From assembly GCA_964580065.1 (NCBI GenBank), contig CAZOJE010000001.1, positions 23,717-87,716 on the forward strand: a stretch of DNA of 64,000 nt. The letters are read 5' to 3'. Below the pieces are notes generated by a model, which saw only the letters and a list, made by a program, of their open reading frames with translations, searched no databases and was not told the DNA's origin. The position numbers were made by a program, and so were the translations under genes. Position 1 is the stretch's first letter; each line of letters begins with the position of its first letter. This DNA comes from an uncultured Candidatus Saccharibacteria bacterium (GTDB lineage: Bacteria > Patescibacteriota > UBA1384 > DTJR01). Shown piece after piece: positions 181-55,491 of the stretch.

Positions 181-2373
181 ATGAAATATAAAATCCACAA
201 AAGATCGATCATTCTCTCGTCGCTGGCAATCGCTCTAATTGCCACTCTTGGCATTTCCTTGCTTTATAAAACCAAGAAAGCTGACGCGGTAGCTATAAAC
301 TTGGCTGGACGAGCCCAAATTTTAAACACAAACGGCTACCTTAACTTCACCGATTACTCTGCCAATGTCACAACTTCCAATATCAGCTGCACTTTCGACG
401 GCTATGGCTGGTCTTCTGATATCGGTTGGGTGGCTTTTGGCACGAGTAATAATCTCGACGGCCCCGTAACCTGTGATTTGACAACCGGCATTCTCTCGGG
501 GAAAGCCAGCATCATAAATGATGGCTCAATCATTGATTTTAACGTCGATCCATATCATAGCAATGTCCGTATCCTTTCTTCCGGTGACTTTACCGGTTAT
601 GCTTGGTCAACGACACTCGGCTGGATCAATTTCACCGGTGTTTCAGCCCCAGGAATGATCATCGGCCCTACTTCAAGCTCAACTTCCTCGCCAACAACCA
701 CTGATACGATTTTCACCGAGCCGGCTCCAGTTGATACAACTTCAAGCCCAACACCTGCTTCAAGTCTAACTTCCTCATCAGCGACTAGCACAATTTTCAC
801 CGATCCGGCTCCTGTTGCCATGACTAAAAAAGAAATAATTGAGTTGCCTGACTTCAAATTTTATTTTGTTTTAGAAAATGGAAATCTTGAGGTCAAAATA
901 AATGGCGAAAAAGATTTTGAGCTGGTAAAAAACTCCGAGCTTTTAATTGGGATTCCAGCTGATATTTTTGCCAAGGAAGTCAATGCTATCACCATCACTA
1001 CTGCCGATTCTTCTTATCCGATGAATTTTTTGGCTGACAAAAACAAATATCAGGCAGTCATTTCCGTACCCCAAAAAGGCGAATGCGAACTGCGTATCCT
1101 AATAGCTTACAAAGACGACACAATTCAGGAAATTAAAAAAACTATCCTCGTCGACCCTCAAGGTTATATTTTTACTAAAAGCTCTTCTTATTTCGGTTTA
1201 GGCAGAAAGCAAGAAATGAGAATTGAAGGCGCGGAAGTTACTCTTTATAAGCTTGAAAACGGTGAGTTCCAAAAATGGGATGCCAAGGAATTTAAGCAAA
1301 ATAATCCGGTTATTTCCGACCAGTCGGGGGAATACTCATTTTTTGTGCCCAACGGTGAATACTATTTAGAGGTCAAAAAAAGTGGCTACCGAGACAAGAA
1401 AAGCGATAATTTTAAAGTGGAAAATCAGGTTCTCAACAAAAATATTGAGCTTGAACCCAATATCAAGCCCTGGATTTGGGCAGTGATTATGGCTGTTTTA
1501 GCCGGAATTGTTTTGGTTTTTTTATTGATGAGAAAAAAATTTATATTGAAAATTAAAAAAGGAGTTCGTATGAAAAAACTAATTACTATCCTTGTCAGTG
1601 CAATAGTTTTAGCAACCGGAGTTTTGGTTGGCTCCAGTTATGTCTTGGCTGAACAGTCGGGTTCTTCACCCGAGTCTGGTGTTACAAGTTATTTCAAAGC
1701 CACTTACGACTCGATTGTGGCGCTTTCACACGGTTCGGTTGCAGCCGGCGCTTGGGGCGACTGGGGTGCTTACTGGAACCGAATCAGATCGGCCGCTGAA
1801 TGGGTGCCGTCTGGCGATGCAGCCGTCACCGACGTTGTGTCGGGCAAAACTTTTTACAAAGATTCCCGAACCAAAGCCACTGGAACCAAACTAGTGGTCG
1901 GCCCTTGCCCAACACAGGCCTATCACGACTCGCATGCTTTAGCTACTGCTCAAAATAACTGCTCTCAAACATGGGAAAGCGAAACAAGTGTTACCGGTTC
2001 AGAAAAAAAAGATCCTGTCACCGGTTTAATCTGGAGTAACTTGCTGGTAAATAACGCCGGCACTGTGGCTTTCAGCCCAAGCACTAACTCCACTTGGAGC
2101 TGGGACGCTTCGGCTGCTGCTAACGTGGCGGTTGGCAATAAAACAGCTTCACAGCTTTGTAGCGAACGCGGAGATGGTTGGCGCTTACCAATGCAGAAGG
2201 AGTTAATGCAGGCCTACATTGATGGTTCGACATGGAATCTGACTCAGTCTGCCAACTTCTTTTGGTCAGCTACGGAGACATATAGCACGCTCGCTTGGTA
2301 CGTGACCTTGAATACTGGCCTCACGCTCAGCACCGATAAGACGACTGTGTATCAGTTACGTTGTGTCAGGTAA
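181..2373 (+). CDS. secreted/membrane protein: signal peptide, GW-type repeats, CarboxypepD_reg-like beta-sandwich, TM helix, then a second signal-peptide-like segment and a C-terminal DUF1566 (Lcl C-terminal) domain; possibly two genes fused
   Basis: N-terminal hydrophobic leader. Repeated GYGWSSDIGWVAFG / GYAWSTTLGWINFTG motifs. GEYSFFVPNGEYYLEVKKSGY matches the carboxypeptidase-regulatory fold. C-terminus TGLIWS...GWRLP..EL...FWSAT...VYQLRCVR matches DUF1566. An internal MKKLITILVSAIVLATGVLVG sits after a TM helix at about nt 1570, with AAGGAG 5 nt upstream. Confidence 0.55.
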   Translation: MKYKIHKRSIILSSLAIALIATLGISLLYKTKKADAVAINLAGRAQILNTNGYLNFTDYSANVTTSNISCTFDGYGWSSDIGWVAFGTSNNLDGPVTCDLTTGILSGKASIINDGSIIDFNVDPYHSNVRILSSGDFTGYAWSTTLGWINFTGVSAPGMIIGPTSSSTSSPTTTDTIFTEPAPVDTTSSPTPASSLTSSSATSTIFTDPAPVAMTKKEIIELPDFKFYFVLENGNLEVKINGEKDFELVKNSELLIGIPADIFAKEVNAITITTADSSYPMNFLADKNKYQAVISVPQKGECELRILIAYKDDTIQEIKKTILVDPQGYIFTKSSSYFGLGRKQEMRIEGAEVTLYKLENGEFQKWDAKEFKQNNPVISDQSGEYSFFVPNGEYYLEVKKSGYRDKKSDNFKVENQVLNKNIELEPNIKPWIWAVIMAVLAGIVLVFLLMRKKFILKIKKGVRMKKLITILVSAIVLATGVLVGSSYVLAEQSGSSPESGVTSYFKATYDSIVALSHGSVAAGAWGDWGAYWNRIRSAAEWVPSGDAAVTDVVSGKTFYKDSRTKATGTKLVVGPCPTQAYHDSHALATAQNNCSQTWESETSVTGSEKKDPVTGLIWSNLLVNNAGTVAFSPSTNSTWSWDASAAANVAVGNKTASQLCSERGDGWRLPMQKELMQAYIDGSTWNLTQSANFFWSATETYSTLAWYVTLNTGLTLSTDKTTVYQLRCVR

Positions 2374-2434
2374 CTCCGTGAGGTAAACCCCATTTAATGG
2401 GGATGCCTTTCTTTGGCTGAAATGATGCCATACT

Positions 2435-2460
2435 GAACTTATTTCAGCATCTCACAACAC
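2435..2460. repeat. 26-bp direct repeat, copy 1 (GAACTTATTTCAGCATCTCACAACAC), flanking the GIY-YIG gene
   Basis: Matches the copy at 2849-2875 at 24 of 26 positions. Confidence 0.6.
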
Positions 2461-2478
2461 TTCAGTATCTAAAAAATT

Positions 2479-2709
2479 ATGATAATGAAAACATATTTCA
2501 TTTACATTTTGACCAATCAGACCAACACCACTTTATACATTGGTGTGACCAATAATTTGCAGCGGAGGATGTACGAGCATAAGAATGAACTGATAGATGG
2601 TTTTAGTAAGAGATATAAACTCAAAAAACTTGTATATTCCGAGCAGTGCGAAGATGTGCTGAGTGCAATTTCGAGGGAAAAGCAGTTAAAAAACTGGCAT
2701 AGGGACTAG
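2479..2709 (+). CDS. GIY-YIG nuclease superfamily protein (short, UPF0213-like)
   Basis: YILTN..TLYIGVTNNLQRRMYEHK...GFSKRY...LVY.E....AISREKQLKNW is a GIY-YIG domain signature. Confidence 0.7.
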   Translation: MIMKTYFIYILTNQTNTTLYIGVTNNLQRRMYEHKNELIDGFSKRYKLKKLVYSEQCEDVLSAISREKQLKNWHRD

Positions 2710-2848
2710 AAGCTGAATTTAATCAAAAGCATTAATCCTACATTTAGAGATTTATCAAAAGATTGGGAACGAGATCCCGAAACGAGTTCGAAATGACAGA
2801 TTGCACTTCAGTTCGGGATGACACAGCCGGTTGTCATTTTGTCATGGC

Positions 2849-2875
2849 GAACTTGTTTCAGCATCTAATCAACAC
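2849..2875. repeat. 26-bp direct repeat, copy 2 (GAACTTGTTTCAGCATCTAATCAACAC)
   Basis: Near-identical to 2435-2460. The two copies bracket the GIY-YIG ORF. Confidence 0.6.
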
Positions 2876-2879
2876 AGAC

Positions 2880-3251
2880 CTACAAACCTGGTGGATTGAT
2901 CGCTTTTATTGTTCGAAAATCGAAGATACGTGAAGTTTTGCCGCCGATGTGCTCGAACTTCTCGTCTTCGGGACGACATACCCCGAAAAGCAGTTCAAGT
3001 GCTCCATCCTCGCCCTCGGTCAGGATGTGCTGGACTCGCGCAGCCTCGTCTACGTCACCTGCCTCGCCGGCTGCCGTAGCCGGCGTGAGTTGGGCCTCGT
3101 TCCGCGCGGCGTTCGCTGGGTTCAGGACTGCCGCGTTCTCGCCTTTCGCAAGTAGTCGTCCCTTTGGCCTAGAGAAAGCCATCGGGCGAGGAGCCGTCCG
3201 GCCCCCACGCATGACGTTATATGCGCGGGGGCTTTTGTTTTTAAGAGGCAA
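2880..3251 (-). CDS. GC-rich ORF fragment with strong GC3 bias (hypothetical; foreign-looking). The true start is probably internal (MAFSRPKGRLL...).
   Basis: Local GC is far above the window background. Codons are dominated by G/C in third position (GAC GAG GCG GTC CAG CAC ATC CTG ACC GAG GGC...). No recognisable family. Confidence 0.3.
   Translation of the reverse strand: MPLKNKSPRAYNVMRGGRTAPRPMAFSRPKGRLLAKGENAAVLNPANAARNEAQLTPATAAGEAGDVDEAARVQHILTEGEDGALELLFGVCRPEDEKFEHIGGKTSRIFDFRTIKAINPPGL
3202..3242 (+). terminator. Rho-independent terminator (stem CCCCCACGCAT/ATGCGCGGGGG followed by CTTTTGTTTT)
   Basis: GC-rich hairpin followed by a T-run, read on the + strand. Confidence 0.6.
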
Positions 3252-3581
3252 GGTTTTACAAAATCTAACAATTATTTTATAATTTGTTTGTAAGCAAAAT
3301 TGTTTGCTTGCGTTTTTTTTGTGACTTTTTTTAGGAGGGGATATTAATCAGGAACGAATTAGCGAATTAGAAAAATCGATTGAAAGCGTACAAAAATCAA
3401 CACGAACATTTTTTAGTTTTATGAATAAGCCGCACAACTGGTTGCGGATGAAATCAAAGCACTATTCTATCTTTCTATCTGTTATTTTTTGATTTTTTTG
3501 CTATGATAAAAAGGTCTAATTTAGCTGCTAAAAAAGCAGCCGTTATTTGATAGAAAACTTAGTTCACAATGGTTTTGATAG

Positions 3582-3656
3582 GCGGGTATCGTATAATGGT
3601 TATTATGTCAGCCTTCCAAGCTGAAGATGGCGGTCCGATTCCGCTTACCCGCTCCA
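3582..3656 (+). tRNA. tRNA-Gly (anticodon TCC)
   Basis: Acceptor GCGGGTA/TACCCGC. Anticodon stem TCAGC/GCTGA with loop CTTCCAA. T-arm GGCGG-TCCGATT-CCGCT. Encoded CCA. Confidence 0.85.
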
Positions 3657-3800
3657 AAAATAGTAGGTTAGTAGGTTAGTTGTTAGCGGGTAGGGAAGAA
3701 GAAAACAGAAAGAATAGTAAGTTAGTAGGCTAGTAGTTAGTGGGTAGTGGTTAGGGAAAAAGAGAACAGAAAGGATAGTAAGTTAGAAGGTTGGCGGGTA
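3657..3800. repeat. about 2.5 tandem copies of a roughly 62-bp unit (TAGTAGGTTAGT...GGGTAGGGAAGAAGAAAACAGAAAGAATAGTAA)
   Basis: Unit A 3657-3716, unit B 3717-3782, partial unit C to about 3810. Unit B contains the left arm of an inverted repeat that pairs with 4195-4230. Confidence 0.6.
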
Positions 3801-3846
3801 GTTGTTGGGGCAAGCTAGCCAAAAGACTGTTTTGCGTCTAGGTAAA

Positions 3847-4194
3847 ATGTTCAATTTTGAGAAATTAACCGTATACCAACGATCGCTTATACTAGCAACG
3901 AATTTGTCGAGAGTTGCTGGTGGCTTTCCATTGAAATATCGACGCATACAAGATCAGTTGATAGGTGCCGCCATTTCGGTAACTCTCAATATAGCCGAAG
4001 GATCTGGAAGGTATGGCAAAAGAGAAAAAATACAATTCTATCGAACGGCGCAAGCATCTGCTTTTGAGATAATTCCAATTTTGGAGATATGTGATAATCT
4101 TAATTTGCTCAAGAAAAATGAGTGGGCAGGTGAGGTTGAGGAAATTTGCAAAATGTTAAGTTCATTAATAAAAAAATTGAGTACATCCGAGTAG
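3847..4194 (+). CDS. four-helix-bundle protein (23S rRNA intervening-sequence protein family, PF05635-like)
   Basis: MFNFEKLTVYQRSLILATNL...PLKYRRIQDQLIGAAISVTLNIAEGSGRY...FYRTAQASAFEI matches the family hallmark (F.FE.L.VYQ...L..Q...AA.SI..NIAEG). Confidence 0.75.
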   Translation: MFNFEKLTVYQRSLILATNLSRVAGGFPLKYRRIQDQLIGAAISVTLNIAEGSGRYGKREKIQFYRTAQASAFEIIPILEICDNLNLLKKNEWAGEVEEICKMLSSLIKKLSTSE

Positions 4195-4230
4195 CCCTAA
4201 CCACTAACCTACTAACTACTAACAACTATT
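4195..4230. repeat. right arm of a roughly 34-bp inverted repeat (CCCTAACCACTAACCTACTAACTACTAACAACTA), reverse complement of 3725-3758
   Basis: The reverse complement of this arm matches TAGTAGTTAGT.GGTAGTGGTTAGGG in the upstream tandem repeat. The two arms bracket the four-helix-bundle ORF. Confidence 0.6.
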
Positions 4231-4234
4231 TCAT

Positions 4235-4311
4235 GCGCCCGTAGCTCAGCTGGATAGAGCGGCTGCCTTCTAAGCAGCAGGTCACAGGTTCGAATCCTGT
4301 CGGGCGTACCA
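4235..4311 (+). tRNA. tRNA-Arg (anticodon TCT)
   Basis: GCGCCCG-TA-GCTC-AGCTGGATA-GAGC...GCTGC-CTTCTAA-GCAGC...ACAGG-TTCGAAT-CCTGT-CGGGCGT-A-CCA. Confidence 0.85.
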
Positions 4312-4399
4312 GAATTTTCAATTCACCCGTAAGGGTGTGTTGAAAATTGTTTGGGAGCTACAGGATTCGAATGCCGGACTGAATCGCCGATTAGGCGAT

Positions 4400-4447
4400 G
4401 AGGGAGGCGGGGGTTTCGAGGGTGGAACTCGAAACTGCGGCGCACTC
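4400..4447. repeat. 47-nt motif GAGGGAGGCGGGGGTTTCGAGGGTGGAACTCGAAACTGCGGCGCACTC, identical to 35829-35877; internal hairpin GTTTCGAG-GGTGGAA-CTCGAAAC
   Basis: Exact 47-nt identity between the two loci. Both copies lie 90-100 bp downstream of a tRNA or tRNA fragment and share an upstream TGCCGGAC(T/C)GA block. Confidence 0.7.
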
Positions 4448-4525
4448 CTTAAAATGACTCCAAACGAGGAGTGGAAAGCAATGAAGTGCTTGAAGTGTCT
4501 GTCGACGAGTTGTTAGAATAAATTT

Positions 4526-5038
4526 ATGAAACAAAAAGTTATTTTATACATGGCAATAAGTTTGAACGGAATTATTGCCAAGAGCGATGATGACACAAGC
4601 TGGATTTCAAACGAAGAATGGGATAGCTATAGTTTAGCCGTGCGAACTGCTGGAAATCTCATTGTCGGTCATCGCACATACAACATACTTACTAAACAGC
4701 CGGAATTTTCAGAATTTAAAGATGTAAAACTTGTCGTCGTCGCTTATGATGATTTTCAAACTTTAGCAGAAAATCATTTAGTCGCTCATTCGCCCAAAGA
4801 AGCGTTGAAACTTTTGAGCGATTTTGAGCAGGTGGTCGTTGCGGGCGGCGGAACTCTTAACGCTTCTTTCGTTGAAGAAAATTTGATTGACGAAATTTTT
4901 ATTGATATTGAACCGATAGTTTTAGGTCAAGGCATCCCACTTTTCAAAGATAAAAACTTTGAGCGTAACCTAAAATTGCTCGGGCAAAGACAAATAAGCG
5001 ATAATGAAATACAACTTCATTATGAGGTTTTGAAATAA
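4526..5038 (+). CDS. dihydrofolate reductase family protein (RibD C-terminal-domain-like)
   Basis: KVILYMAISLNGIIAKSDDDTSW...AGNLIVGHRTY...VVVAGGGTLNASFVEENLIDEIFIDIEPIVLGQGIPLF is a typical DHFR-like pattern. Confidence 0.8.
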   Translation: MKQKVILYMAISLNGIIAKSDDDTSWISNEEWDSYSLAVRTAGNLIVGHRTYNILTKQPEFSEFKDVKLVVVAYDDFQTLAENHLVAHSPKEALKLLSDFEQVVVAGGGTLNASFVEENLIDEIFIDIEPIVLGQGIPLFKDKNFERNLKLLGQRQISDNEIQLHYEVLK

Positions 5039-5204
5039 TATTGCAGCAATTCATAAAAAAGTTTGGCCAGAAATTTTATAAAAATTAACAAAACATAAAA
5101 TCAGCCCTATGGGTTGATTTTTTTATCATAATACGCTATAATTATTAGCTGTGTTGAAAGCGACATTAAATATGTTGTGTGAGAACATTGAAAATGAGTA
5201 GTTA

Positions 5205-5260
5205 GAAGCAGCTTAGTAAGCTATCCATTTATGATATTTTACTAAGCTGCTTCTGGCACT
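5205..5260. repeat. perfect 16-bp inverted repeat (AGAAGCAGCTTAGTAA ... TTACTAAGCTGCTTCT) with a 19-nt loop, at the edge of GC-rich islet 2
   Basis: Read directly from the sequence. A strong hairpin immediately upstream of the GC-rich segment. Confidence 0.7.
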
Positions 5261-5408
5261 TTAGTGTCGAAGCGGCGGCCGTCTCGCTAGAGCGAGCGGC
5301 AGTGTCTTCCCGAGATTTCGGGTTGCACAGGCACTACCTCAAAAGGAATCGGGGGTCCCAACCGATTCGCCACTTTAACAAAAGTGGAATCACCAGGAGG
5401 TGAGTGGG

Positions 5409-5834
5409 ATGTCTGGTTTCTACGAAAGCCGTAGAAGTGAATACCTCCAGGGCGCCAACCGGCGGCTGGAGGGGGAGTATGGCTTGTCGTTTTTTTTAGT
5501 CGAGGATCGCGTCCGGTGTCGCAAAGGCGCGACCTTCAACTTGAAGCTGAAGTTCAATGACGTGCCGCAGGTTGTCGAATTCGACATCCTGCTGGCACAG
5601 CCGCGGAAGCGGCTCCGCCGAGCGGTTGCCGCCGTCGAGCAGCACGGCCTTTTGGGCGTGCTGCTCGACCCAGAGACTTATCTCTGGGAGTCGATCCGCG
5701 ACGGAATTGTTTTTGGCCTGGAGCCGGCTCAATGGCTTCTTGAGCCGGTGCTTTCACGCGTCGCGCCCGAAGTTTGGGCGCAGGCGGTAGAGGGGGTCCG
5801 AGCTGACGCAAAAGAGCTCGGACGGGCGTGCTGA
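5409..5834 (+). CDS. GC-rich hypothetical protein (strong GC3 bias; foreign-looking)
   Basis: AGGAGGTG Shine-Dalgarno 6 nt before the ATG. Codon third positions are overwhelmingly G/C, unlike neighbouring genes. Followed by a terminator. No family recognised. Confidence 0.45.
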   Translation: MSGFYESRRSEYLQGANRRLEGEYGLSFFLVEDRVRCRKGATFNLKLKFNDVPQVVEFDILLAQPRKRLRRAVAAVEQHGLLGVLLDPETYLWESIRDGIVFGLEPAQWLLEPVLSRVAPEVWAQAVEGVRADAKELGRAC

Positions 5835-5861
5835 TGAGCGGGGGCACCGGGTAACACTTAC

Positions 5862-5897
5862 GGGACAGGTCGATGCGACCTGTCCCGTTTGCTTTTG
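5862..5897 (+). terminator. Rho-independent terminator (GGGACAGGTCG...CGACCTGTCCC followed by GTTTGCTTTTG)
   Basis: 11-bp GC-rich stem followed by a T-run. Confidence 0.65.
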
Positions 5898-5911
5898 CCA
5901 AAATTCTCACC

Positions 5912-6340
5912 TCAATTATTTCCCAATTTAGAAAGATATTGTTCCATTAGGTTTGCATCATTAATGTCTTTCTGGCGGCCTTCGCCATCTGCAATCCAGC
6001 GGCGTTTTACTTCAAGCAAAAACTTTATTGAATTATAACGGATACCGTCTATTATTGTTGAATGATTGAGCAAATCAGCAAATTCCCAAATTTTTCCAGC
6101 AACTATCCACTTTGTTCTGATTTCCAAAAAACCATCGGCTAAAACCTCGCACCCGTGATTTTGCTCTTTTGTAAAACGACCGCTGTCGAGAAGCTCTTAG
6201 TATTTTTCTTTTGTGACGATAACGTCAATGTCTCCGCTTTCGCGAAGATTGAGTGCATTTAAAATACCCGAGCCGATAACGACAGCATTGTCAGGGTCTA
6301 AGCCGAGGTTGTCAAGTTCAATCTTGATATTTTTTCATTC
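5912..6340 (-). pseudogene. nucleotidyltransferase-domain gene disrupted by an in-frame TAA (about nt 6196-6198 on the + strand) and a probable 5' frameshift
   Basis: The minus-strand translation reads ...LDNLGLDPDNAVVIGSGILNALNLRESGDIDVIVTKEKY*ELLDSGRFTKEQNHGCEVLADGFLEIRTKWIVAGKIWEFADLLNHS... in a single frame. The GSG...DIDV motif is typical of a minimal nucleotidyltransferase. The initiator ATG at about 6338 is out of frame. Confidence 0.45.
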
Positions 6341-6387
6341 GCCATATAAAAGCTATTTAAGAACTTTTTGCCGGTGATGCAAAATGT

Positions 6388-6960
6388 TTATTTTATTTTT
6401 AATCCGTCGAGAAAAATTGTACTTACAGTTGCGATAATTTTTGTTTTTGGGGTTTTAGGGCTAAAGATAATCCAGCGCAAACCGGTGGCAAAAACAAATG
6501 AAAAGAAAACGGTGGTTGTGATTTTAGGATCAATATTTTGTTTAAACTCTTTTTGCTTGATTCCTTCTTTAATTATCTGCGAAATGATTTTGGTATATTT
6601 ACCGTGAATTTTATCAACGCTTCTTTTCCAATAACTTTCAATACGCCAAAGTTCGGCGAAAATAACGCGGCAAATATCCCTATATTCCACTAAATAATCT
6701 AACTCAATCTCGATTATTTTTTCCATTTTTTCAGACGCATTTTGAAGATTTTTAGTGCCATCTTGGATTAACAAGAAAATATCGTCAATTCCTTGATCTA
6801 TGAGGGCAAAGAGTAGCTCTTTCTTACTTTTAAAATGATAATAAAAAGTTCCTTTTGCTGTTTTAGCTTCTAAAACTATTTCATCAACAGACGCGTTGTC
6901 AAAACCCTTTTGAGCGAATATTTTTGCCGCGGCTTTAAATATCCTATCTTTTGTTTCCAT
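6388..6960 (-). CDS. TetR/AcrR family transcriptional regulator
   Basis: N-terminal HTH: IFKAAAKIFAQKGFDNASVDEIVLEAKTAKGTFYYHFKSKKELLFAL. Confidence 0.85.
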   Translation of the reverse strand: METKDRIFKAAAKIFAQKGFDNASVDEIVLEAKTAKGTFYYHFKSKKELLFALIDQGIDDIFLLIQDGTKNLQNASEKMEKIIEIELDYLVEYRDICRVIFAELWRIESYWKRSVDKIHGKYTKIISQIIKEGIKQKEFKQNIDPKITTTVFFSFVFATGLRWIIFSPKTPKTKIIATVSTIFLDGLKIK

Positions 6961-8981
6961 TAGACTGCTAGATTAATTTTGCTTTTTCTTATCTTATCAA
7001 AAGATAAGACTAATGTCATAAGAAATGCAACAGCAATCACAACGATAATGATAAACTCCGATTTAATATTAGCCATATTGCCGCCAGAGATTATTTCTCG
7101 CAAACCTTTAACGGCATAAGTCATTGGCAGATACGGGCTAATTTTGCTAAAAAATTTCGGGGATGTTTCGATTGGGTATGTGCCCGAAGCCGAAGTCAAC
7201 TGAAGCATTAAAAGTAAAATGCCTAAAAATTTACCGCCATCTTGCAAAGCACTGATTAAAAACTGCAAAATTGCTAAGAAGCACCAAGATATGAGAATTG
7301 TGAAAAAGAAGAAAAGAATGTAATTAAGCGGTCGTAAGCCAAGAGCAAAAATCAGAACGAGATCTAAAATGATTGCCTGAAGGGCGCCAAATTTTATTAA
7401 GGTTAGATATTTGGAAAGCGCTAGGATCGAAGAGGGGATTTCTGCTTCTTCTTGATCTTTACCGTCAACTCTAATGATTAAAAACAAGACAAGAGCCCCA
7501 ACCCAAAGCGAAAGAGGAATAAAATATGGGGCGAAACCGGTGCCATAATTTTCAACCCTATCGACGGAAGCGTCTTTTAAATTAATGGGATCTGACAAAA
7601 CAGACAGGTTCTGCTCGCTGTTTTGACTGTTAGCGTTATTTTTTATCTCTTTTGCGCCGTCTGATAATTTGCTCGAAAGTGAAGCAGCGCCGTTTTGCAA
7701 CTGATTCGTAGCTTGGCCAACTGTTCGTTGGCCAGAAATTACAGAGCTTAATCCTGAATCAAGCTTGCTAGCGCCATTATCGGCCTTTGATAACGCTGTA
7801 CTAATTTGGCCGGAAGCATCGACTAATTGTGAGGTGCCGGATTTTATTTGCGTGCTAGCCGGCAGAATTTGATTTTTATATGACAAATCAAGCATCTCGG
7901 TCTTGTCTGAAAGATCTGACAGTCCGCTTTTGAGCTGTGACATTCCAGATTGCAAAGCGGCGATATTTTGTAAATTGCTGGCAGATTGGGCTTGATTAAC
8001 GATCGTTGAAAGCATTAGTTGGGCAACTTGTTTGTTAGTAATGCCGTAGGATATGTTTATAGTATCGGGACTATCTAATAAAGTATTTATTGTTTGCAAT
8101 GTGGTTATGGTTGCATTAGTGTTTTTAATTAATTGATCGACACCGTTTTTGGTCTCATCGGACGCAGTACTTAATTTTTGGGTACCGTCGGTAAGATTTG
8201 ATAACGAAGAAGAAACCTGCGAAAGGCCATTGTCTAATTTTTGAGAACCAGCGGCGAGGTCGCTTAATTTAGTCGTAACCGTGCCTGAACCGTTTAATAT
8301 TTGGTTAATTGCGTCTGACAAAATAACTGTCCCGGAATGTAAACCGACCGTTCCGTCTGCGAGCGATTGATTTGCTTGAGCGATTTTATTTGCGCCTTCG
8401 GCGATTTGGCTAGAGGCATCTGAAGCTTCATTCATTTTGTCCGATATCGAAGCGGTTTGGACAAAAATATTTTCGAAATAATTTTTTGATATTTTTGTAC
8501 TTAAAGTGTGAGAAATTTCGCTAGCGACCCGGTTGATCAACTGGGCGCCTATCATGCTGTTGGACTCTCTAGCGATAAAAATCAAATTAGCTTTTTTGGG
8601 ATTGTTAGTCCCAACCGAAATTGTTTTTTGTGAAAAATCCGCTGGAATTTTGATTTCAGCGTAATAATTATAGTTTTCCAAACCTTTCTTGGCTTCATTT
8701 TCGTTAGTAGAACAAAACTTTAATGCGTCGTTGTCTTCGAGTTCGTTTACAAGGTCGTTTCCAAGGTTTATTTTTTGGCTATCTTTTGATGTGCCAATGT
8801 CCTCGTTGACTATAGCAACGGGAATGTTGTTCACACGGCTTGATGGGTCCCAGAAAGCCCAAAGATACAAAACACCATAAAGAAGGGGAATAAGTGTAAC
8901 AACGGTAAGGGCAACACGAATAAGCCGGCTCGAAACAAGCTTCTTTATTTGTTTTTTAGAATGGAATGTGGCTGCTGTCAT
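6960..8981 (-). CDS. YhgE/Pip domain membrane protein (ABC-2-type permease-like, phage-infection-protein family)
   Basis: N-terminal TM helix, a long Ser/Thr/Gln-rich low-complexity extracellular region, and C-terminal multi-TM ABC-2 permease-like helices. It is translationally coupled to the TetR gene, a classic pairing. Confidence 0.8.
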   Translation of the reverse strand: MTAATFHSKKQIKKLVSSRLIRVALTVVTLIPLLYGVLYLWAFWDPSSRVNNIPVAIVNEDIGTSKDSQKINLGNDLVNELEDNDALKFCSTNENEAKKGLENYNYYAEIKIPADFSQKTISVGTNNPKKANLIFIARESNSMIGAQLINRVASEISHTLSTKISKNYFENIFVQTASISDKMNEASDASSQIAEGANKIAQANQSLADGTVGLHSGTVILSDAINQILNGSGTVTTKLSDLAAGSQKLDNGLSQVSSSLSNLTDGTQKLSTASDETKNGVDQLIKNTNATITTLQTINTLLDSPDTINISYGITNKQVAQLMLSTIVNQAQSASNLQNIAALQSGMSQLKSGLSDLSDKTEMLDLSYKNQILPASTQIKSGTSQLVDASGQISTALSKADNGASKLDSGLSSVISGQRTVGQATNQLQNGAASLSSKLSDGAKEIKNNANSQNSEQNLSVLSDPINLKDASVDRVENYGTGFAPYFIPLSLWVGALVLFLIIRVDGKDQEEAEIPSSILALSKYLTLIKFGALQAIILDLVLIFALGLRPLNYILFFFFTILISWCFLAILQFLISALQDGGKFLGILLLMLQLTSASGTYPIETSPKFFSKISPYLPMTYAVKGLREIISGGNMANIKSEFIIIVVIAVAFLMTLVLSFDKIRKSKINLAV

Positions 8982-11928: not shown

Positions 11929-12100
11929 TGCCTAAACCTTAGAAATTTTCTAAGGCATGGCATAAAATCCTTCGCAGATAATGAGCTCGTCGTCAGAGCA
12001 TCTGCGAAGGTTGTGATCCGAAAGGATTGCAGGTAGCCGTAAAAAGCTATCGCTGGCGGCGGGCTTTTTGTATCCGCTTCCGGTTAATCGAGGCAAGAAA

Positions 12101-13240
12101 ATGAAAATATTACATTTAAATCCGGATAAGAAATGGGTTCCGGTTGAAAAGCGATACTATAACGATGAAGCTCAACTTCAAGATCTCTTAACAAACGATG
12201 TTAACACTCTTCCGCTTGATGAAATAGGGTATGATTCCAAATTCGTCACAATAGGAAAGGAAGTAATCCTTCAAAATGGTGCGCTGGATGTTTTGGCGGT
12301 CAGTCCTCAAGGCCACATTGCTTTGATTGAAACAAAGCTCGAGAAAAACCCCGAAGTAAAGAGGACAGTCGTCGGTCAAATCCTCGGTTATGCCGCCTAT
12401 CTTTGGAATAAATCTTATGAAGAGATTGAAGGTAATTGTTTTAGAAAATTCCTACTCCAGCGTAAGGTCAATTTTCAAGGTTCGTTGTGTGAATATATGA
12501 AAGAGAAGATAGGAGAGGAGAATTTCTCAGAATCTGAATTCAAAGAAGGCCTGGAAAAGCGGCTTCGTCTCGGCAGTTTTACTCTTCTGATTGTTGTCGA
12601 TCAGGCCAATCAAGAGCTTAAAGATATCGCTAACTACCTGAATGATCGAACTGGGCAAGAAATCGACTTCTATGTGGTAGAGATGCAATTGGTTGGTGAT
12701 GAACAAGAGCATTTTTTGATACCCAGTCTAGCCAACCCTCCACGAAAAAATATTACCTACTCTGAGAAATCCAAGTCTAACGACAGCTATGATCGAACAC
12801 CGATTGCCAAAGAGGACTTTATAAAATTATTATCACAAAATGGCAAGAGAATTGCCGAAGCACTCCTTGGAAAATTTGAGGCAAGGGATGATGTAGATAT
12901 TGTTTGGCGCAAGAATGGATTCTCGCTGATGGCTAAGTATCCGAAGGATTTTGCCGTACCTGGTTATTCCACAAAATTTTCATTCTTATTTTTTAAGGCT
13001 CCTTCAAATGAACAAGACAGCGAGGAGCTTCAGTTTGGTTATTGCGAATGGCCCTATGAAAACATTCCCAAGCTCAAACCATTTATTGATGAATATGTTA
13101 GTTTCTATCGAACTATGCCTGGATACGACGCAAAACGTAAAACAACTAATGCGTTCAATGAATTTACCGTAGAACAGCAGAATAAATTTATTGGTCTCAT
13201 AGAGGAATCAGCTCGAGAATTAAAATCAAAAGTTTTATAA
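12101..13240 (+). CDS. PD-(D/E)xK nuclease-like hypothetical protein (NucS/DUF91-type motif in the N-terminal domain)
   Basis: ALDVLAVSPQGHIALIETKLEKNPEVKRTVVGQILGYAAYL fits the D...E.K core plus the Q-x-x-x-Y of NucS/DUF91-type restriction-endonuclease-fold proteins. The remaining 280 aa are unassigned. Confidence 0.5.
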   Translation: MKILHLNPDKKWVPVEKRYYNDEAQLQDLLTNDVNTLPLDEIGYDSKFVTIGKEVILQNGALDVLAVSPQGHIALIETKLEKNPEVKRTVVGQILGYAAYLWNKSYEEIEGNCFRKFLLQRKVNFQGSLCEYMKEKIGEENFSESEFKEGLEKRLRLGSFTLLIVVDQANQELKDIANYLNDRTGQEIDFYVVEMQLVGDEQEHFLIPSLANPPRKNITYSEKSKSNDSYDRTPIAKEDFIKLLSQNGKRIAEALLGKFEARDDVDIVWRKNGFSLMAKYPKDFAVPGYSTKFSFLFFKAPSNEQDSEELQFGYCEWPYENIPKLKPFIDEYVSFYRTMPGYDAKRKTTNAFNEFTVEQQNKFIGLIEESARELKSKVL

Positions 13241-35728: not shown

Positions 35729-35781
35729 GGGCCAGTAGCTCACGGGTTGTGTCGGTTGCCTCTTAAGCAACTTGTCGAGGG
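35729..35781 (+). pseudogene. 5' fragment of tRNA-Lys(CTT) with a mutated D-arm (pseudo-tRNA, 53 nt)
   Basis: GGGCCAGTAGCTCAcGGGTtGtGtcGGTTGCCTCTTAAGCAACTTGTCGAGGG compared with the intact gene at 35952: identical except for the D-loop. Ends where the T-loop would begin. Confidence 0.6.
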
Positions 35782-35828
35782 CTTGAGTGGGTGGAACGCT
35801 CAAGTGCCGGACCGAGTGAGCTAGCGAA

Positions 35829-35877
35829 CGAGGGAGGCGGGGGTTTCGAGGGTGGAACTCGAAACTGCGGCGCACTC
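35829..35877. repeat. second copy of the 47-nt hairpin motif (identical to 4400-4447)
   Basis: Exact identity. Preceded by a related hairpin CTTGAGTG-GGTGGAAC-GCTCAAG with the same loop sequence. Confidence 0.7.
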
Positions 35878-35951
35878 GTTGACAAAAAAATATCGCGCCG
35901 ACTTGTGACCGATCCCCAAGGGGATCGAACATTATAAATATATGTTAGTTT

Positions 35952-36026
35952 GGGCCAGTAGCTCAGTGGTAGAGCGGTTGCCTCTTAAGCAACTTGTCGA
36001 GGGTTCGATCCCCTCCTGGCCCTCCA
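35952..36026 (+). tRNA. tRNA-Lys (anticodon CTT)
   Basis: GGGCCAG-TA-GCTC-AGTGGTA-GAGC-G-GTTGC-CTCTTAA-GCAAC-TTGTC-GAGGG-TTCGATC-CCCTC-CTGGCCC-T-CCA. Confidence 0.85.
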
Positions 36027-36153: not shown

Positions 36154-36170
36154 CCCCTCCTGGCCCTCCA
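36154..36170 (+). repeat. 17-19 nt duplicate of the tRNA-Lys 3' end (CCCCTCCTGGCCCTCCAA); att-like remnant
   Basis: Identical to the tRNA 3' terminus, 130 bp downstream of the intact gene. Confidence 0.55.
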
Positions 36171-36427
36171 AACCTATTTTGCGCAAGCAAGGAGGTTTGT
36201 CCTCCGTCTTGTCTATCATAGCTTCATGCGAAGATGGAAGCTCTAAAGAGCGTAGGACGGACTACCCATAACCCATAACTTTACGTGAAGAAGAACATTC
36301 TAAACCTAGAGTTTGCCGCCTAATACAGATAGCTTTTTATTCGAGTAATTGGAGACAATGACCAAAATTTTTGAAAGTAAAAGGGACCTACTTAGTAGGT
36401 CCCTGTGTACAGCTTCTCGTGCTGCAA

Positions 36428-36778
36428 CTAGTCCTCGAACTCGAGGGCAACGCGCCTGATGCGGCGGAACCGGACGAACCGGAACCCTTGGCCGCGCGCG
36501 CCCCAGAAATCGACCTTGGCCGGATCGTTTTCTTCGACCGATTCCGACCAAAGCGGCTTGACACCCTCATGACAGAGCACCGCGATGACCGAGAGGGGGG
36601 CCACGACCACCAGATCGTCGAACCCGCCCTGTTCGTATCGGGTAGCAATCTGCCTAGCGTCATCGAACGGCTTCGAATCCTGTTCGATGATTGTATCGGC
36701 GCCGTACATCTTTTGCAGCGCCTTGATCTGTCGAGGGTGTGGCTTGTGTCGCGACATCCACAAGATCTTTTTCGACAT
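36428..36778 (-). CDS. GC-rich hypothetical protein (strong GC3 bias; foreign-looking)
   Basis: MSKKILWMSRHKPHPRQIKALQKMYGADTIIEQ...GGFDDLVVVAPLSVIAVL.... Third-position G/C dominates the codons. Local GC is above 60% against about 38% background. Confidence 0.4.
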   Translation of the reverse strand: MSKKILWMSRHKPHPRQIKALQKMYGADTIIEQDSKPFDDARQIATRYEQGGFDDLVVVAPLSVIAVLCHEGVKPLWSESVEENDPAKVDFWGARGQGFRFVRFRRIRRVALEFED

Positions 36779-36964
36779 CTGTGTCCCTCCGGTTCGACGG
36801 GTTTGTGCGTTTAGACAGCTAAAAATCTTACTATAAAAATAGCGTTTTGTCTACTTCGCGAATTAGATCATCAGAAATGTTACCGAAATGTTCGCCCGTT
36901 AGCTCATTAACAATGTTACCGTAATTTGGGATAATCTCCGGTCAAACAATCGATAAGACAGGAG

Positions 36965-37180
36965 ATGAAAATGATGAACAAAATGAGCAAAAGAGAGTAT
37001 TTGCGGGAGCTGAAAAAGAGATATCGTAAAGCAAGCAAGAAGCGCAAAACCCAGCTTTTGAATGACTTTTGTACGTTCACTGGCTATCACCGGAAATCAG
37101 CTTTGCGGTTGATTAATAATCGTTTACCAAGTCAATTAGGTAATTTTGTGAAATGTTTTAATTTGGGCGCTGATATTTAA
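36965..37180 (+). pseudogene. truncated transposase/integrase N-terminal HTH fragment (71 aa)
   Basis: MSKREYLRELKKRYRKASKKRKTQLLNDFCTFTGYHRKSALRLI resembles the N-terminal HTH region of DDE-type integrase-core transposases. The ORF stops after 71 aa with no catalytic domain following. Confidence 0.35.
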
Positions 37181-37226
37181 GCGCCTATTGCGAGTAAAAT
37201 TTTATTCGATAAAGTAAATTATAGAT

Positions 37227-37634
37227 ATGAAAAAAATTATTGTTTTTGGATCGTTCGACCCTCTCCATCAAGGTCATTTGAATTTTTTTAATCAGGCAAA
37301 AAAACTTGGTGATTATTTAATTGTTGTGGTGGCGCGAGATGAAAACATTAAAAAAAATAAGAATAGGGAAGTGAGATTTGGCGAAGATGAACGAATGAAA
37401 GCTGTTGAAGCAACACAAATTGCCAACGAAGTGATGTTGGGAGACGAGAGCGATAGCTACACAATCCTTGAAAAAATTAATCCTGACGTTATTGCTGTCG
37501 GTTATGATCAAAAAATCCCCGAGGTCTTGAAAAATAAGGTTAAAAAGTATAAAATTGTCACGTTGAAGCCGTTTAAGCCGGAAATTTTTAAATCGAGTAA
37601 GATGATAAATTCGGATAACGGCCCCATCGTCTAG
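37227..37634 (+). CDS. cytidylyltransferase-family nucleotidyltransferase (HxGH motif; RibL/TagD-like). Its 3' end overlaps tRNA-Glu by about 15 nt.
   Basis: IIVFGSFDPLHQGHLNFF...YLIVVVARDE. Confidence 0.75.
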   Translation: MKKIIVFGSFDPLHQGHLNFFNQAKKLGDYLIVVVARDENIKKNKNREVRFGEDERMKAVEATQIANEVMLGDESDSYTILEKINPDVIAVGYDQKIPEVLKNKVKKYKIVTLKPFKPEIFKSSKMINSDNGPIV

Positions 37635-37739: not shown

Positions 37740-37798
37740 CATCCTGGCAACCGGGGGTTTCGAGAGTGGAGCTCGAAACTATCCCCGTGGGGTCACCA
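37740..37798 (+). repeat. duplicate of the tRNA-Glu 3' half in which the T-loop is replaced by a GTTTCGAG-AGTGGAG-CTCGAAAC hairpin (a relative of the 47-nt motif)
   Basis: CATCCTGGCAACCGGGGG[TTTCGAGAGTGGAGCTCGAAACTA]TCCCCGTGGGGTCACCA compared with the tRNA CATCCTGGCAACCGGGG-TTCGACT-CCCCGTGGGGTCACCA. Confidence 0.65.
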
Positions 37799-48031: not shown

Positions 48032-48262
48032 GTGGTTGCTATGCTGCTAATTGATATTGCCGCCTACAACCTGAGGGATCCGCGACAACTCATGCGGTTG
48101 TTCTGCAGAATTGTCAATGCAAGTATTTCGGAGTATCTGGCGATTCTTTCCGAGGTGAGGAAGGGGTTGATCGGATATGGGCTGCATTCAAGTATGGCTG
48201 AAAGCTTCATTAACGAGGCGGAAAGCGAGGCATGGGAGGTGATGGTAAATGAGGCCGGCTAG
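48032..48262 (+). CDS. small hypothetical protein in a moderately GC-richer segment
   Basis: 76-aa ORF followed by a strong terminator. No recognisable family. Confidence 0.3.
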   Translation: MVAMLLIDIAAYNLRDPRQLMRLFCRIVNASISEYLAILSEVRKGLIGYGLHSSMAESFINEAESEAWEVMVNEAG

Positions 48263-52184: not shown

Positions 52185-52407
52185 TTAATTTGATAAGGAT
52201 AAAAAAACTGTTATTATAAAAATATGTTAACCGAATTAATAAATAAGACCTTTGCATATTGGTTTTTTACCGACTCTCACAGCCGGCGTTTTTAGTTATT
52301 TAAAATAATCAAAATAAATTTAGCCGGCTGAAGAGCCGGTTTTTTTGTGTTTAGCTGCTAACTTTCGATTTTCGAAGGTTGGCACATTGAACACAAGGGA
52401 GGCAGAA

Positions 52408-52593
52408 ATGGACGCTCAAGAGGTGTTCTTTAAAAGGGCGCTTGTCTGGATGCAAGCATTGGAGCGAGCAAAAATGTCGGGAATCCAGTCGTGGATAAAC
52501 GACTGTGAAGAACAGGTAAGAAGGGCAAAAGAAGAAGCCGAGAGAGCCGGCTACCCTGTACCGATTCAAGAAGTGCCCAATCGCACCGCGTAA
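52408..52593 (+). CDS. small hypothetical protein (61 aa)
   Basis: GGGAGG SD before MDAQEVFF. Terminator downstream. Confidence 0.4.
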   Translation: MDAQEVFFKRALVWMQALERAKMSGIQSWINDCEEQVRRAKEEAERAGYPVPIQEVPNRTA

Positions 52594-52920: not shown

Positions 52921-52999
52921 TTCTATTCCCTTTCATTTTTGGGCGTTCCTGCCTTTGTCGTATTTACTGCAAGGGCGCGACGCGCCCAAAAAGGAGAAA

Positions 53000-53380
53000 A
53001 TGAGAATGAACGAGTTTACTTTGGACGGAGCATGGATGAACGGCAATCAAACGTTTGCCGTCAGAGTGAGGACTCTCGATGGCATCGTCGTATCTGACGC
53101 TGCATCTAGCTCAAACTTGTTCGAAGCTATATCGAAGGCGTTCCAAAGAACGACGGGGGTTGACTTTTCGATCACATCTCTTGTGGTCGATTCGAGGTTC
53201 GAGAGCAACTCCGTGTCGTTCAAAGTCCATCTTTCTGTTGTTGCTGATGGGTTTTGGATGGCGAAAACCGAAGGAGAATCCAGCAACTTGGTCGAAGCGA
53301 TAGCGAGCGCGGCTTTGGCCGGTGTCAACATGCGTCTTCGGTACACTGCGGCCGCTCCAGCACCCGCTTCAGTTGCCTAG
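53000..53380 (+). CDS. hypothetical protein with an internal duplication (SSSNLFEAISKA / ESSNLVEAIASA)
   Basis: AAGGAG SD. Two repeated half-domains. Moderately GC-richer than surrounding genes. Confidence 0.45.
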   Translation: MRMNEFTLDGAWMNGNQTFAVRVRTLDGIVVSDAASSSNLFEAISKAFQRTTGVDFSITSLVVDSRFESNSVSFKVHLSVVADGFWMAKTEGESSNLVEAIASAALAGVNMRLRYTAAAPAPASVA

Positions 53381-53645: not shown

Positions 53646-53996
53646 ATGGGTGAAGTAACCGAAGGACTGGCCAACGAGCTGAAGCCGCTTTTTGAGAGGG
53701 GCGAGACTCTCATAGACAGCGAGGAGGAAAAGGCGCGTTTCTTGAAGGAAGCCAGGATTCTCTTCAGTGTAGAGATTCGCTGGGGACATTCTGCCGGTAG
53801 AGACTACTGGCTTCGTGCAGGTCATACCGAGTTCATCACATCTTGCGCCACCTCGCTGTCTCGCCAAGATGCCATTGGGAGGGCAATCTGGTGGCTAGAC
53901 AGAAAACCTTACTTCCAGTCGGAGTTCTTCAAAACCCATCGGAGTGAATTGCTTCAACACCCGGGGGTTCCTCTAATCCGTCGCGGGTTGATCTGA
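53646..53996 (+). CDS. hypothetical protein
   Basis: AAGGAG SD. 116-aa ORF. Terminator downstream at 54001-54035. Confidence 0.4.
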   Translation: MGEVTEGLANELKPLFERGETLIDSEEEKARFLKEARILFSVEIRWGHSAGRDYWLRAGHTEFITSCATSLSRQDAIGRAIWWLDRKPYFQSEFFKTHRSELLQHPGVPLIRRGLI

Positions 53997-54967: not shown

Positions 54968-55466
54968 CGTGAATACAAACCTGACAATAGATCAAAAGCA
55001 AACAGCCATTTATTTTGGCAGTTTTTGCTTTTCTAAATGGATGACCGGAGAGCGGTTTTGAGGTAGAGATACATAATTTCCCCTCAAAACCGCTCCGCCC
55101 CACGGAGCGGTTTTATTTTGACAAGGGGGGTGGGACAGTGGCCGGCTTTACTTAGCCGCACATGGCTCTGCTTCTCTAGCAGAGCCGGGGGTCAGCCCCT
55201 TATAGCTGCGTTCGTTGAAAACGGGTTCGCCCGTGCACTTTTCAACCATGTTTCTTCCTTTTAGCCGACGTATGAAGCAAGGGGGAAGGTACGTCTAGGA
55301 CTTCGGTCCTCGGTTGATTCGTGCGATAGCGAGTGGGAAAGGGTCCGGGTCTCTGCCCTTCCCTTCGGCTTCGGCCGAAAAAAGAGACCCCCACGGGACG
55401 GTGAGGTTTCCGCCTCACCGTCCCGACCAGTTTACCAGACGAAGACCCCGTGGGTCTTTTTTTGTT
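54968..55466 (+). ncRNA. candidate structured non-coding transcript of about 500 nt (unidentified). It begins with an attenuator and contains UUCG tetraloop hairpins; a terminator closes it at the 3' end.
   Basis: No plausible ORF. GC-rich stem-loops include GGACTTCGGTCC, GGCTTCGGCC, GGGACGGTGAGG...CCTCACCGTCCC and GGCTCTGC...GCAGAGCC. A terminator (AGACCCCGTGGGTCTTTTTTT) at 55443-55466 closes the region. Does not match the RNase P, tmRNA or SRP consensus as I recall them. Confidence 0.3.
55045..55118 (+). promoter_or_regulatory. terminator/antiterminator-type alternative hairpins. Segment 1 CCGGAGAGCGGTTTTGAGG and segment 3 CGGAGCGGTTTT are both complementary to segment 2 CCTCAAAACCGCTCCG.
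   Basis: Pairing 1:2 is a 14-bp perfect stem. Pairing 2:3 is an 8-bp stem followed by a T-run (terminator). The two pairings are mutually exclusive. Confidence 0.45.
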
Positions 55467-55491
55467 GGAATTATTTGTTAACTTTTAATCA

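Follow-up and report, generated by a model that had tools for sequence, protein, structure and literature searches.

Three short GC-rich islets, each about one gene in size, interrupt an otherwise AT-rich stretch of 64,000 nucleotides from contig CAZOJE010000001.1 (assembly GCA_964580065.1, positions 23,717 to 87,716, forward strand). This whole stretch is called the window below, and all positions refer to it. We consider it probable, with moderate confidence, that the islets are small, horizontally acquired pieces of DNA of GC-rich ancestry, which lie in scarred, variable regions flanked by tRNA genes in an AT-rich genome, itself probably a member of the Candidate Phyla Radiation (CPR). Islet 3 most likely holds, on its own, the gene that elsewhere opens a module circulating among CPR lineages (small alpha/beta protein - bpMoxR AAA+ ATPase - VWA protein).

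Composition of the islets

The GC content of the window is 40.2% (mean 0.402, standard deviation 0.065 in a 150-nt scan). In the same scan, the patches at 2910-3267 (islet 1) and 5242-5933 (islet 2) have a GC content of 0.58 and the patch at 36350-36765 (islet 3) of 0.57, with local peaks of 0.65-0.69 and an abrupt shift of composition at the islet borders. The islets named in an initial annotation of this DNA therefore exist, and the open reading frames (ORFs) it placed in them are present in all three.

As reference for the GC content of third codon positions (GC3), we used the 39 window ORFs of at least 150 aa, for which GC3 is 0.367 +/- 0.037 with a maximum of 0.447. GC3 is 0.58, 0.70 and 0.76 for the ORFs of islets 1, 2 and 3, respectively (islet 1 on the minus strand; all codon positions are given in Table 1), so that islets 2 and 3 are outliers as claimed, while the statement that G or C stands at nearly every third position was too strong. 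In islets 2 and 3, the choice of codons for Arg, Ser, Leu, Lys and Glu has moved to CGC/CGG, TCG, CTG/CTC, AAG and GAG. These data support the view that the coding-type composition of the islets is foreign to the window genome.

The number of three islets is a lower bound, as more GC-enriched short units exist in the window. Four further short ORFs with raised GC3 (Table 1), none of which has a Pfam match above cut-off, may be weaker or older cases of the same phenomenon.

The islet 3 gene and its protein family

The protein encoded by islet 3 has 144 homologues at 55-77% identity. Their named sources are mostly metagenome-assembled genomes (MAGs) of CPR/Patescibacteria, together with unclassified MAGs and a few odd bins, and the closest relatives (74-77% identity) are located on other AT-rich contigs of CPR type. 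The family is about 115 aa long and has 19 invariant columns, including P37, F38, A60-V64, R100, F101 and R103-R106. Its motifs PFD, VAPLSV and RFxRFRR, by which membership is recognised, are all found in the islet 3 protein.

An AlphaFold2 model of this protein (predicted local distance difference test, pLDDT, 91.8) has six strands alternating with three helices, and the modelled fold is a small alpha/beta fold. No Pfam, PHROG, PADLOC or NCBIfam family matched the protein, a sequence-profile search of PDB returned nothing, and a Foldseek search of the model against PDB gave nothing at E < 0.01. In the viral structure library BFVD, the model matched only unnamed phage proteins of 128-144 aa, weakly, at template modelling (TM) scores of about 0.5-0.6. 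In 19 nucleotide sequences of the family, variation is of the codon type and the RNAalifold covariation term is negligible, at -2.2 kcal/mol. Islet 3 thus encodes a protein and is no structured RNA.

A scan of GTDB with one genome per species yielded 28 loci of the family. They come from Paceibacteria, Komeilibacteria, Doudnabacteria, Saccharibacteria, Uhrbacteria and unclassified Patescibacteria, and a few from bins labelled Gammaproteobacteria, Nanoarchaeota, Kapaibacterium, Planctomycetota or Marsarchaeota. In the closest copies (20 of 28; at least 55% identity), the GC content of the gene stays at 0.52-0.65 whatever its flanks, which range from 0.38 to 0.59, and thus the family gene is a GC islet in other AT-rich hosts too. 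When gene GC3 was regressed on flank GC in 19 aligned copies, the slope was 0.33 and r was 0.35. Distant family members (37-53% identity), seven of which are on IMG/VR viral contigs, mostly follow the GC content of their own genome, with GC3 down to 0.16, so the protein itself does not require GC-rich codons. Islet 3 had no match in 50,697 phage genomes, and none of the islets had a match in 72,556 plasmids.

The genes around the family copies form recurrent arrangements. In 8 of the 28 GTDB loci, the family gene stands with a bpMoxR AAA+ ATPase (PF20030), a VWA protein and a protein of 500-890 aa. In six other loci, it follows a protein of 1200-1400 aa and an LRV_2 protein; the L006 copy of the long protein ends, as judged by eye, in a VWA-like motif. 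The most informative locus is on a 327-kb Doudnabacteria contig with a GC content of 0.44 (L018). Three genes, with a GC3 of 0.79 for the small gene, 0.76 for bpMoxR and 0.74 for a frameshifted VWA gene, make up a 3.6-kb island of 0.55-0.64 GC there. The islet 3 family is an abundant, unannotated family of small proteins linked to MoxR-VWA modules. The window copy is solitary: tblastn with the proteins of L014, L018 and L007 found no MoxR or VWA gene in the 64-kb window.

Two side observations concern sequences downstream of the family gene. It is followed in L006 by another GC-rich ORF, of 116 aa (3345-3695), and in several loci from AT-rich hosts (L003-L015) a conserved motif, CGAGTTTATGAGGTTTCTC, is found about 40 nt after it.

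The islet 2 gene and its single relative

Islet 2 holds a gene for a protein of 141 aa. The initial annotation described the islet as bounded by a perfect hairpin and a terminator, and both are present: the hairpin marks the left edge and a terminator-like hairpin closes the islet (Table 1). The predicted 5' leader is about 260 nt long with the perfect hairpin included. Its fold (5150-5420) has a z-score of -7.5, for which the hairpin is mostly responsible, and an AGGAGG sequence lies eight bases before the start codon.

A word-indexed search with the islet 2 protein returned the protein itself as the sole match. One relative emerged from an exhaustive HMMER search of 1.84 billion representatives (P0130; 38% identity across 129 residues, E 1.2e-9). 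It is encoded on a 1-kb JGI contig whose ends are AT-rich; its gene is again GC-rich and has a promoter-like sequence (TTGACA...TATAGT) and a terminator hairpin of its own. Comparison of the 5' leaders of islet 2 and the relative locus L033 gave no convincing conservation. No Pfam, PHROG, PADLOC or NCBIfam match was found for the islet 2 protein, and its AlphaFold2 model is of low confidence (pLDDT 52) and therefore unfit for structure search. Islet 2 is a rare orphan gene, with an architecture of the same kind as that of islet 3.

Loss or maintenance of the high GC content

In the islet 3 family, substitutions in close pairs were polarised by outgroups. Among these recent substitutions, 51 lead from G or C to A or T (S>W) and 22 in the reverse direction (W>S), which is 70% S>W. 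Whole-tree parsimony counts of S>W and W>S were set aside, since that method is biased under skewed composition. For 13 family copies in AT-rich hosts, a non-stationary two-state maximum-likelihood (ML) model was fitted to the third codon positions. The model is crude, with two states, a fixed neighbour-joining tree and 104 sites, and a second rate class brought no change. It places the root GC3 near 1.0, or at 0.81 for the syntenic clade (overall range 0.8-1.0), the current GC3 at 0.66 and the equilibrium at 0.51 (support about 0.40-0.58), and it rejects an equilibrium of 0.65 at delta-lnL 6-9.

Because the current GC3 is above the fitted equilibrium and S>W substitutions are in excess, the copies are still losing GC. 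Loss from a very GC-rich ancestor supports a foreign origin of high GC content, and this part of the initial claim fits the reconstructed root. The window copy, with its GC3 of 0.76, is among the least decayed members of the family.

Passive amelioration may not be the whole story, as two results indicate. Six syntenic loci share the order giant VWA protein - LRV_2 protein - family gene. In them, GC3 is 0.26-0.44 for the neighbours and 0.57-0.77 for the family gene, a nearly constant offset of about 0.33, although identity at four-fold sites is about 0.4, and thus near saturation, in the family gene and its neighbours alike. Moreover, the ML model rejects an equilibrium of 0.35 at delta-lnL 3.6-4.4, and the fitted equilibrium appears somewhat above the GC3 of the hosts; this last point is tentative because the model is crude. 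Both results speak for a rival reading, in which the islet genes are long-term residents and a local force keeps their synonymous sites GC-rich against the AT-biased mutation of the host. Such a force could be selection that acts on the stability of the mRNA or on expression, or gene conversion with a GC bias via frequent recombination. Both known members of the islet 2 family, at 38% identity, are likewise GC-rich within AT-rich DNA. However, the copies of the islet 3 family have not settled at their present GC3, as the rejection of 0.65 and the S>W excess indicate, its distant members take the GC content of their hosts, and no conserved mRNA structure was found among the islet 3 relatives. 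Maintenance of this kind is, in our judgement, unlikely.

A joint reading is conceivable, in which such a gene-specific force (mRNA selection, or GC-biased conversion through recurrent exchange among CPR) would hold the GC content of the islet 3 family, and perhaps of the islet 2 family, above that of the host, and the small protein would be a part of the mobile MoxR-VWA conflict modules of CPR that is separable from them and has so far gone unrecognised. We regard this combination as doubtful.

Islet 1 and the question of structured RNA

For islet 1, the annotated minus-strand ORF exists, but the assignment of the coding strand does not hold firmly, since an antisense ORF in the same codon register (2949-3155) has a GC3 of 0.81 and a putative terminator behind it. 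Gene finders call the minus-strand ORF at a length of 100-123 aa. Its last 60 nt or so leave the GC-rich core and run into AT-rich DNA, and by eye it has neither a good ribosome-binding site (RBS) nor a terminator. Within the core, the position-specific GC of the minus strand is 0.77/0.51/0.655, a three-base periodicity. The plus-strand ORF has a codon-position profile typical of the other islets, no RBS and no family match, and it is called in no assembly.

The hairpin at the right edge of islet 1 has a 12-bp stem with one A.C mismatch on the plus strand (G.U on the minus strand), followed by TTTTGTTTTT. Together with its T-run, it begins 48 nt past the stop codon of the plus-strand ORF; it was seen in the folds and is absent from the pattern-scan listing. 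The minus-strand ORF has a GC3 of only 0.58 and leaves the core, and the plus-strand ORF has the higher GC3 and the terminator, so the coding strand is ambiguous. Strain variants do not settle the frame, as they contain only 0-1 single-nucleotide polymorphism (SNP) inside the islet. The islet 1 protein had no homologue besides itself, the islet had no match in Pfam, PHROG, PADLOC, NCBIfam or Rfam, and neither the islet 1 peptides of both strands nor the islet 2 protein had a match on viral contigs. We read islet 1 as a probable decayed remnant; it may be the 3' part, with terminator, of a GC-rich gene on the plus strand.

It is improbable that structured non-coding RNAs account for the islets or, at a minimum, for islet 1, with folding as the cause of the high GC content. 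This explanation draws on the lack of an RBS on either strand and of a protein homologue in islet 1, on its strong terminal hairpin, on its fold z-scores of -2.7 (plus strand) and -3.0 (minus strand), and on a further GC-rich segment of the window without an ORF (55118-55462; fold z-score -5.7). However, the z-scores of islet 1 are unremarkable for GC-rich sequence, and the islet shows three-base periodicity. At the gathering thresholds of the Rfam 15 covariance models, the only matches in the window are six tRNAs and one LOOT RNA, none in an islet, and nothing credible was found in islets 1 and 2 at permissive E values up to 5. The islet 2 protein has a homologue that aligns over 129 residues, and conservation in islet 3 is of the codon type with negligible covariation. 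For islet 3 we reject the structured-RNA alternative, for islet 2 it is unlikely, and the initial view that the islets are not known structured RNAs agrees with both the Rfam result and the lack of a conserved RNA fold in islet 3.

The GC-rich segment just mentioned is part of a plus-strand stretch of 0.55-0.61 GC without an ORF (55040-55470), which lies between two terminator-like hairpins (about 55085-55118 and 55443-55470). The segment 55118-55462 has a folding energy of -157 kcal/mol and two cUUCGg loops, and no Rfam match was found for the stretch. It is a candidate for an undescribed structured RNA.

Donor and contiguity

The initial annotation had suggested that the islets passed from a high-GC actinobacterial host to its episymbiont. 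Their codon usage does resemble that of a genome of about 60% GC, and the inferred ancestor of the islet 3 subfamily is very GC-rich. However, no actinobacterium is among the named sources of the 144 homologues, in the 28 GTDB loci, in the HMMER scan for islet 2 or in the plasmid searches, and the nearest relatives of islet 3 are those in AT-rich contigs of CPR type. A recent, direct transfer of this kind is thus very improbable: high GC ancestry is supported, but an actinobacterial donor is not, and the transfer of islet 3 appears as a history of the family within CPR and not as a recent jump from a host.

Logan assemblies of single sequencing runs show that the islets are contiguous with their flanks. 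Contigs of SRR9860463 match the window at 4421-8083 and 36161-37234 with 100% identity and cross both borders of islet 2 and of islet 3. Islet 1 and its flanks were found again in SRR9878565 (100% identity) and, as strain variants, in SRR30200690 (99.37% over positions 316-4280) and ERR7570001 (99.47% over positions 1917-3621). The mundane alternative of the initial annotation, a chimera of assembly or binning in which reads of a GC-rich organism were joined into an AT-rich contig, could account for the abrupt switch of composition at the borders but is rejected with near certainty, since the junctions of all three islets recur in independent assemblies and sensible (predicted) transcription signals bound each islet.

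Genomic setting

The islets have tRNA genes, RibD_C, TetR, cytidylyltransferase and ABC transporter genes as neighbours. The claimed closeness to tRNA genes holds at distances of 330 nt for islet 1, about 950 nt for islet 2 and about 345 nt for islet 3. The features are summarized in Table 1.

Table 1. Features in and around the GC-rich islets (window positions; promoters and terminators are predictions)
Feature	Position	Strand	Remarks
Islet 1 GC-rich core and terminal hairpin	2936-3245	unassigned	about 0.64 GC over 2940-3200
Called islet 1 ORF, 123 aa	2880-3251	-	codon-position GC 0.68/0.47/0.58; shorter forms start at 3212 or 3182
Alternative islet 1 ORF, 68 aa	2949-3155	+	antisense, same codon register; GC3 0.81
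Putative intrinsic terminator, islet 1	3203-3245	+	right edge of islet 1; read from the sequence
Promoter-like site, islet 2	5114-5142	+	TTGATT-17-TATAAT, 10/12 consensus matches
Perfect hairpin, 16-bp stem	5207-5251	+	left edge of islet 2, in predicted 5' leader
GC-rich 5' leader of islet 2 gene	5260-5408	+	AGGAGG at 5395-5400
Islet 2 gene, 141-aa near-orphan protein	5409-5834	+	codon-position GC 0.70/0.42/0.70
Intrinsic-terminator-like hairpin, 13 pairs, and T-run	5860-5898	+	closes islet 2
Truncated gene adjoining islet 2	5912-6127	-	C-terminal 71 aa of a protein of about 190 aa, intact in L090
Repeat of tRNA-Lys 3' end, exact, 17 nt	36154-36170	+	source 36010-36026; att-like scar
Intrinsic-terminator-like hairpin, 10 pairs, and T-run	36382-36404	-	downstream of islet 3 gene
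Islet 3 gene, 116 aa	36428-36778	-	codon-position GC 0.62/0.39/0.76; GGAGGG RBS at 36785-36790
Promoter-like site, islet 3	36825-36853	-	TAGACA-17-TAAGAT, 9/12 consensus matches
Extra GC-enriched short ORF	48032-48262		GC3 within 0.51-0.61
Extra GC-enriched short ORF	52345-52593		GC3 within 0.51-0.61
Extra GC-enriched short ORF	52955-53380		GC3 within 0.51-0.61
Extra GC-enriched short ORF	53646-53996		GC3 within 0.51-0.61

The scarred, tRNA-rich setting that had been described is confirmed by a repeat of the tRNA-Lys 3' end, by repeats behind tRNA genes and by the truncated gene beside islet 2. The tRNA-Lys repeat (two matches against 0.04 expected by chance) lies 128 nt from the tRNA, between it and islet 3, and has no third copy in the window. 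Another repeat of about 100 nt is found at 4340-4450, 35790-35890 and 37744-37794; its first two copies share a 51-nt core with 98% identity. It stands just 3' of tRNA-Arg and of the degenerate copy of tRNA-Lys at 35729-35790, and a weaker copy follows tRNA-Glu. At 3675-3796, there are two tandem copies of a 61-nt unit with 80% identity. The GIY-YIG gene at 2479-2709 stops prematurely at 2709 and is probably disrupted. The loci of the islets are variable, recombination-prone regions.

The RibD_C/DHFR-like gene (4526-5038) has 73 metagenomic relatives, most of them at 63-92% protein identity, and seems to move between genomic contexts. None of the 73 loci shares the neighbour genes of the window, so no empty site can be defined by way of this gene. 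The ORF at 36965-37180 (71 aa) has a weak DUF7207 match only. The short ORFs adjoining the islets and the islet proteins had no PHROG match, and among the window ORFs that were scanned, no integrase or recombinase was seen within or adjoining the islets.

Several further observations were made in the same regions. By eye, the usual C-terminal tail of GIY-YIG proteins continues in another frame within 2479-2790 and is followed by repeated AGTTCG(A/G)(A/G)ATGACA. The 61-nt tandem repeat is located between tRNA-Gly and a four-helix-bundle gene (3802-4194) of the "23S rRNA intervening sequence protein" type (PF05635, TIGR02436). Several other metagenome contigs also have GC-rich patches at a distance of up to about 0.5 kb from their RibD_C homologues, and the translations of these patches resemble the 100-nt repeat, as judged only by eye. 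In the comparison between the window and SRR30200690, 19 of 25 differences cluster at 1664-1815, inside a gene for an Lcl_C-type protein, several of them at third codon positions. The pattern suggests a recombination tract rather than mutagenesis of the type of diversity-generating retroelements (DGRs). A full-length LOOT RNA (RF03000, 93.6 bits) is found at 11929-12051, directly upstream of the ORF 12068-13240.

Origin of the islets

From the above, single GC-rich genes would have been acquired horizontally into variable, tRNA-rich loci. Islets 2 and 3 are built like phage morons: each holds one gene whose composition deviates, preceded by a promoter-like site and a strong Shine-Dalgarno sequence and followed by a terminator-like hairpin. 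The MoxR-VWA module may spread among CPR, with distant relatives of the small protein on viral contigs, and the islet 3 branch would descend from a very GC-rich ancestor, its synonymous sites drifting to AT in AT-rich hosts (amelioration). The composition, the contiguity in several assemblies, the membership of islet 3 in its family, the operons in other genomes and the GC-rich island of L018 are shown, while the direction and mode of transfer, expression from the predicted signals and the origin of islet 1 as a remnant are inferred.

Several points weigh against this horizontal origin. A donor was found for none of the islets, the promoters and terminators are predictions from consensus matches alone, and relatives are too scarce for evolutionary tests on islets 1 and 2. 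No integrase, transposase or phage gene was found beside the islets, and the tRNA-Lys repeat does not bracket islet 3. To these are added the two results on maintenance given above, namely that the family gene keeps its GC3 offset over its neighbours at similar synonymous divergence, and that the fitted equilibrium exceeds the GC3 of the hosts.

The sharp GC-rich patches in this AT-rich genome of CPR type are nevertheless genuine, and at least one of them can be traced to a mobile GC-rich module that CPR lineages have in common, rather than to the host of the organism. Claims of host-to-symbiont transfer based on composition alone should therefore be tempered. The islets may also offer a case of locally elevated equilibrium GC; otherwise, they would represent ordinary horizontal gene transfer.

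Comparison with known systems

In the literature, we found nothing on GC-rich islets in CPR genomes, while three known systems share features with them. Phage morons have a deviant GC content and their own promoter and terminator, and are independent transcription units added to prophage genomes (PMC3594210). Like them, islets 2 and 3 consist of a single gene whose GC content is unlike that of its neighbours, with predicted promoter-like and terminator-like sites, and horizontal transfer is implied. In contrast, the islets stand among chromosomal and tRNA genes with no phage genes around, and islet 1 has a terminator-like hairpin only. Since they are not located in a prophage, the islets are not members of the moron class.

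The islets also resemble tRNA-linked genomic islands or islets that undergo amelioration. They share with such elements a deviant composition, a location close to tRNA genes with a repeated tRNA-Lys 3' end, and the presence of degraded genes in the vicinity, and the islet 3 family also shows the S>W drift of synonymous sites. Unlike them, the islets are only 0.35-0.7 kb in size (about one gene), no integrase was identified, the repeat does not bracket the islet, and the fitted equilibrium GC3 is above the host level.

Finally, islet 3 can be compared with the MoxR-VWA modules, whose ATPase family PF20030 is described as "MoxR domain in the MoxR-vWA-beta-propeller ternary systems". The window differs from these modules in holding the small gene only, with no MoxR or VWA gene within 64 kb. 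In the eight GTDB loci and in the Doudnabacteria contig, however, the family gene is located directly upstream of bpMoxR and VWA.

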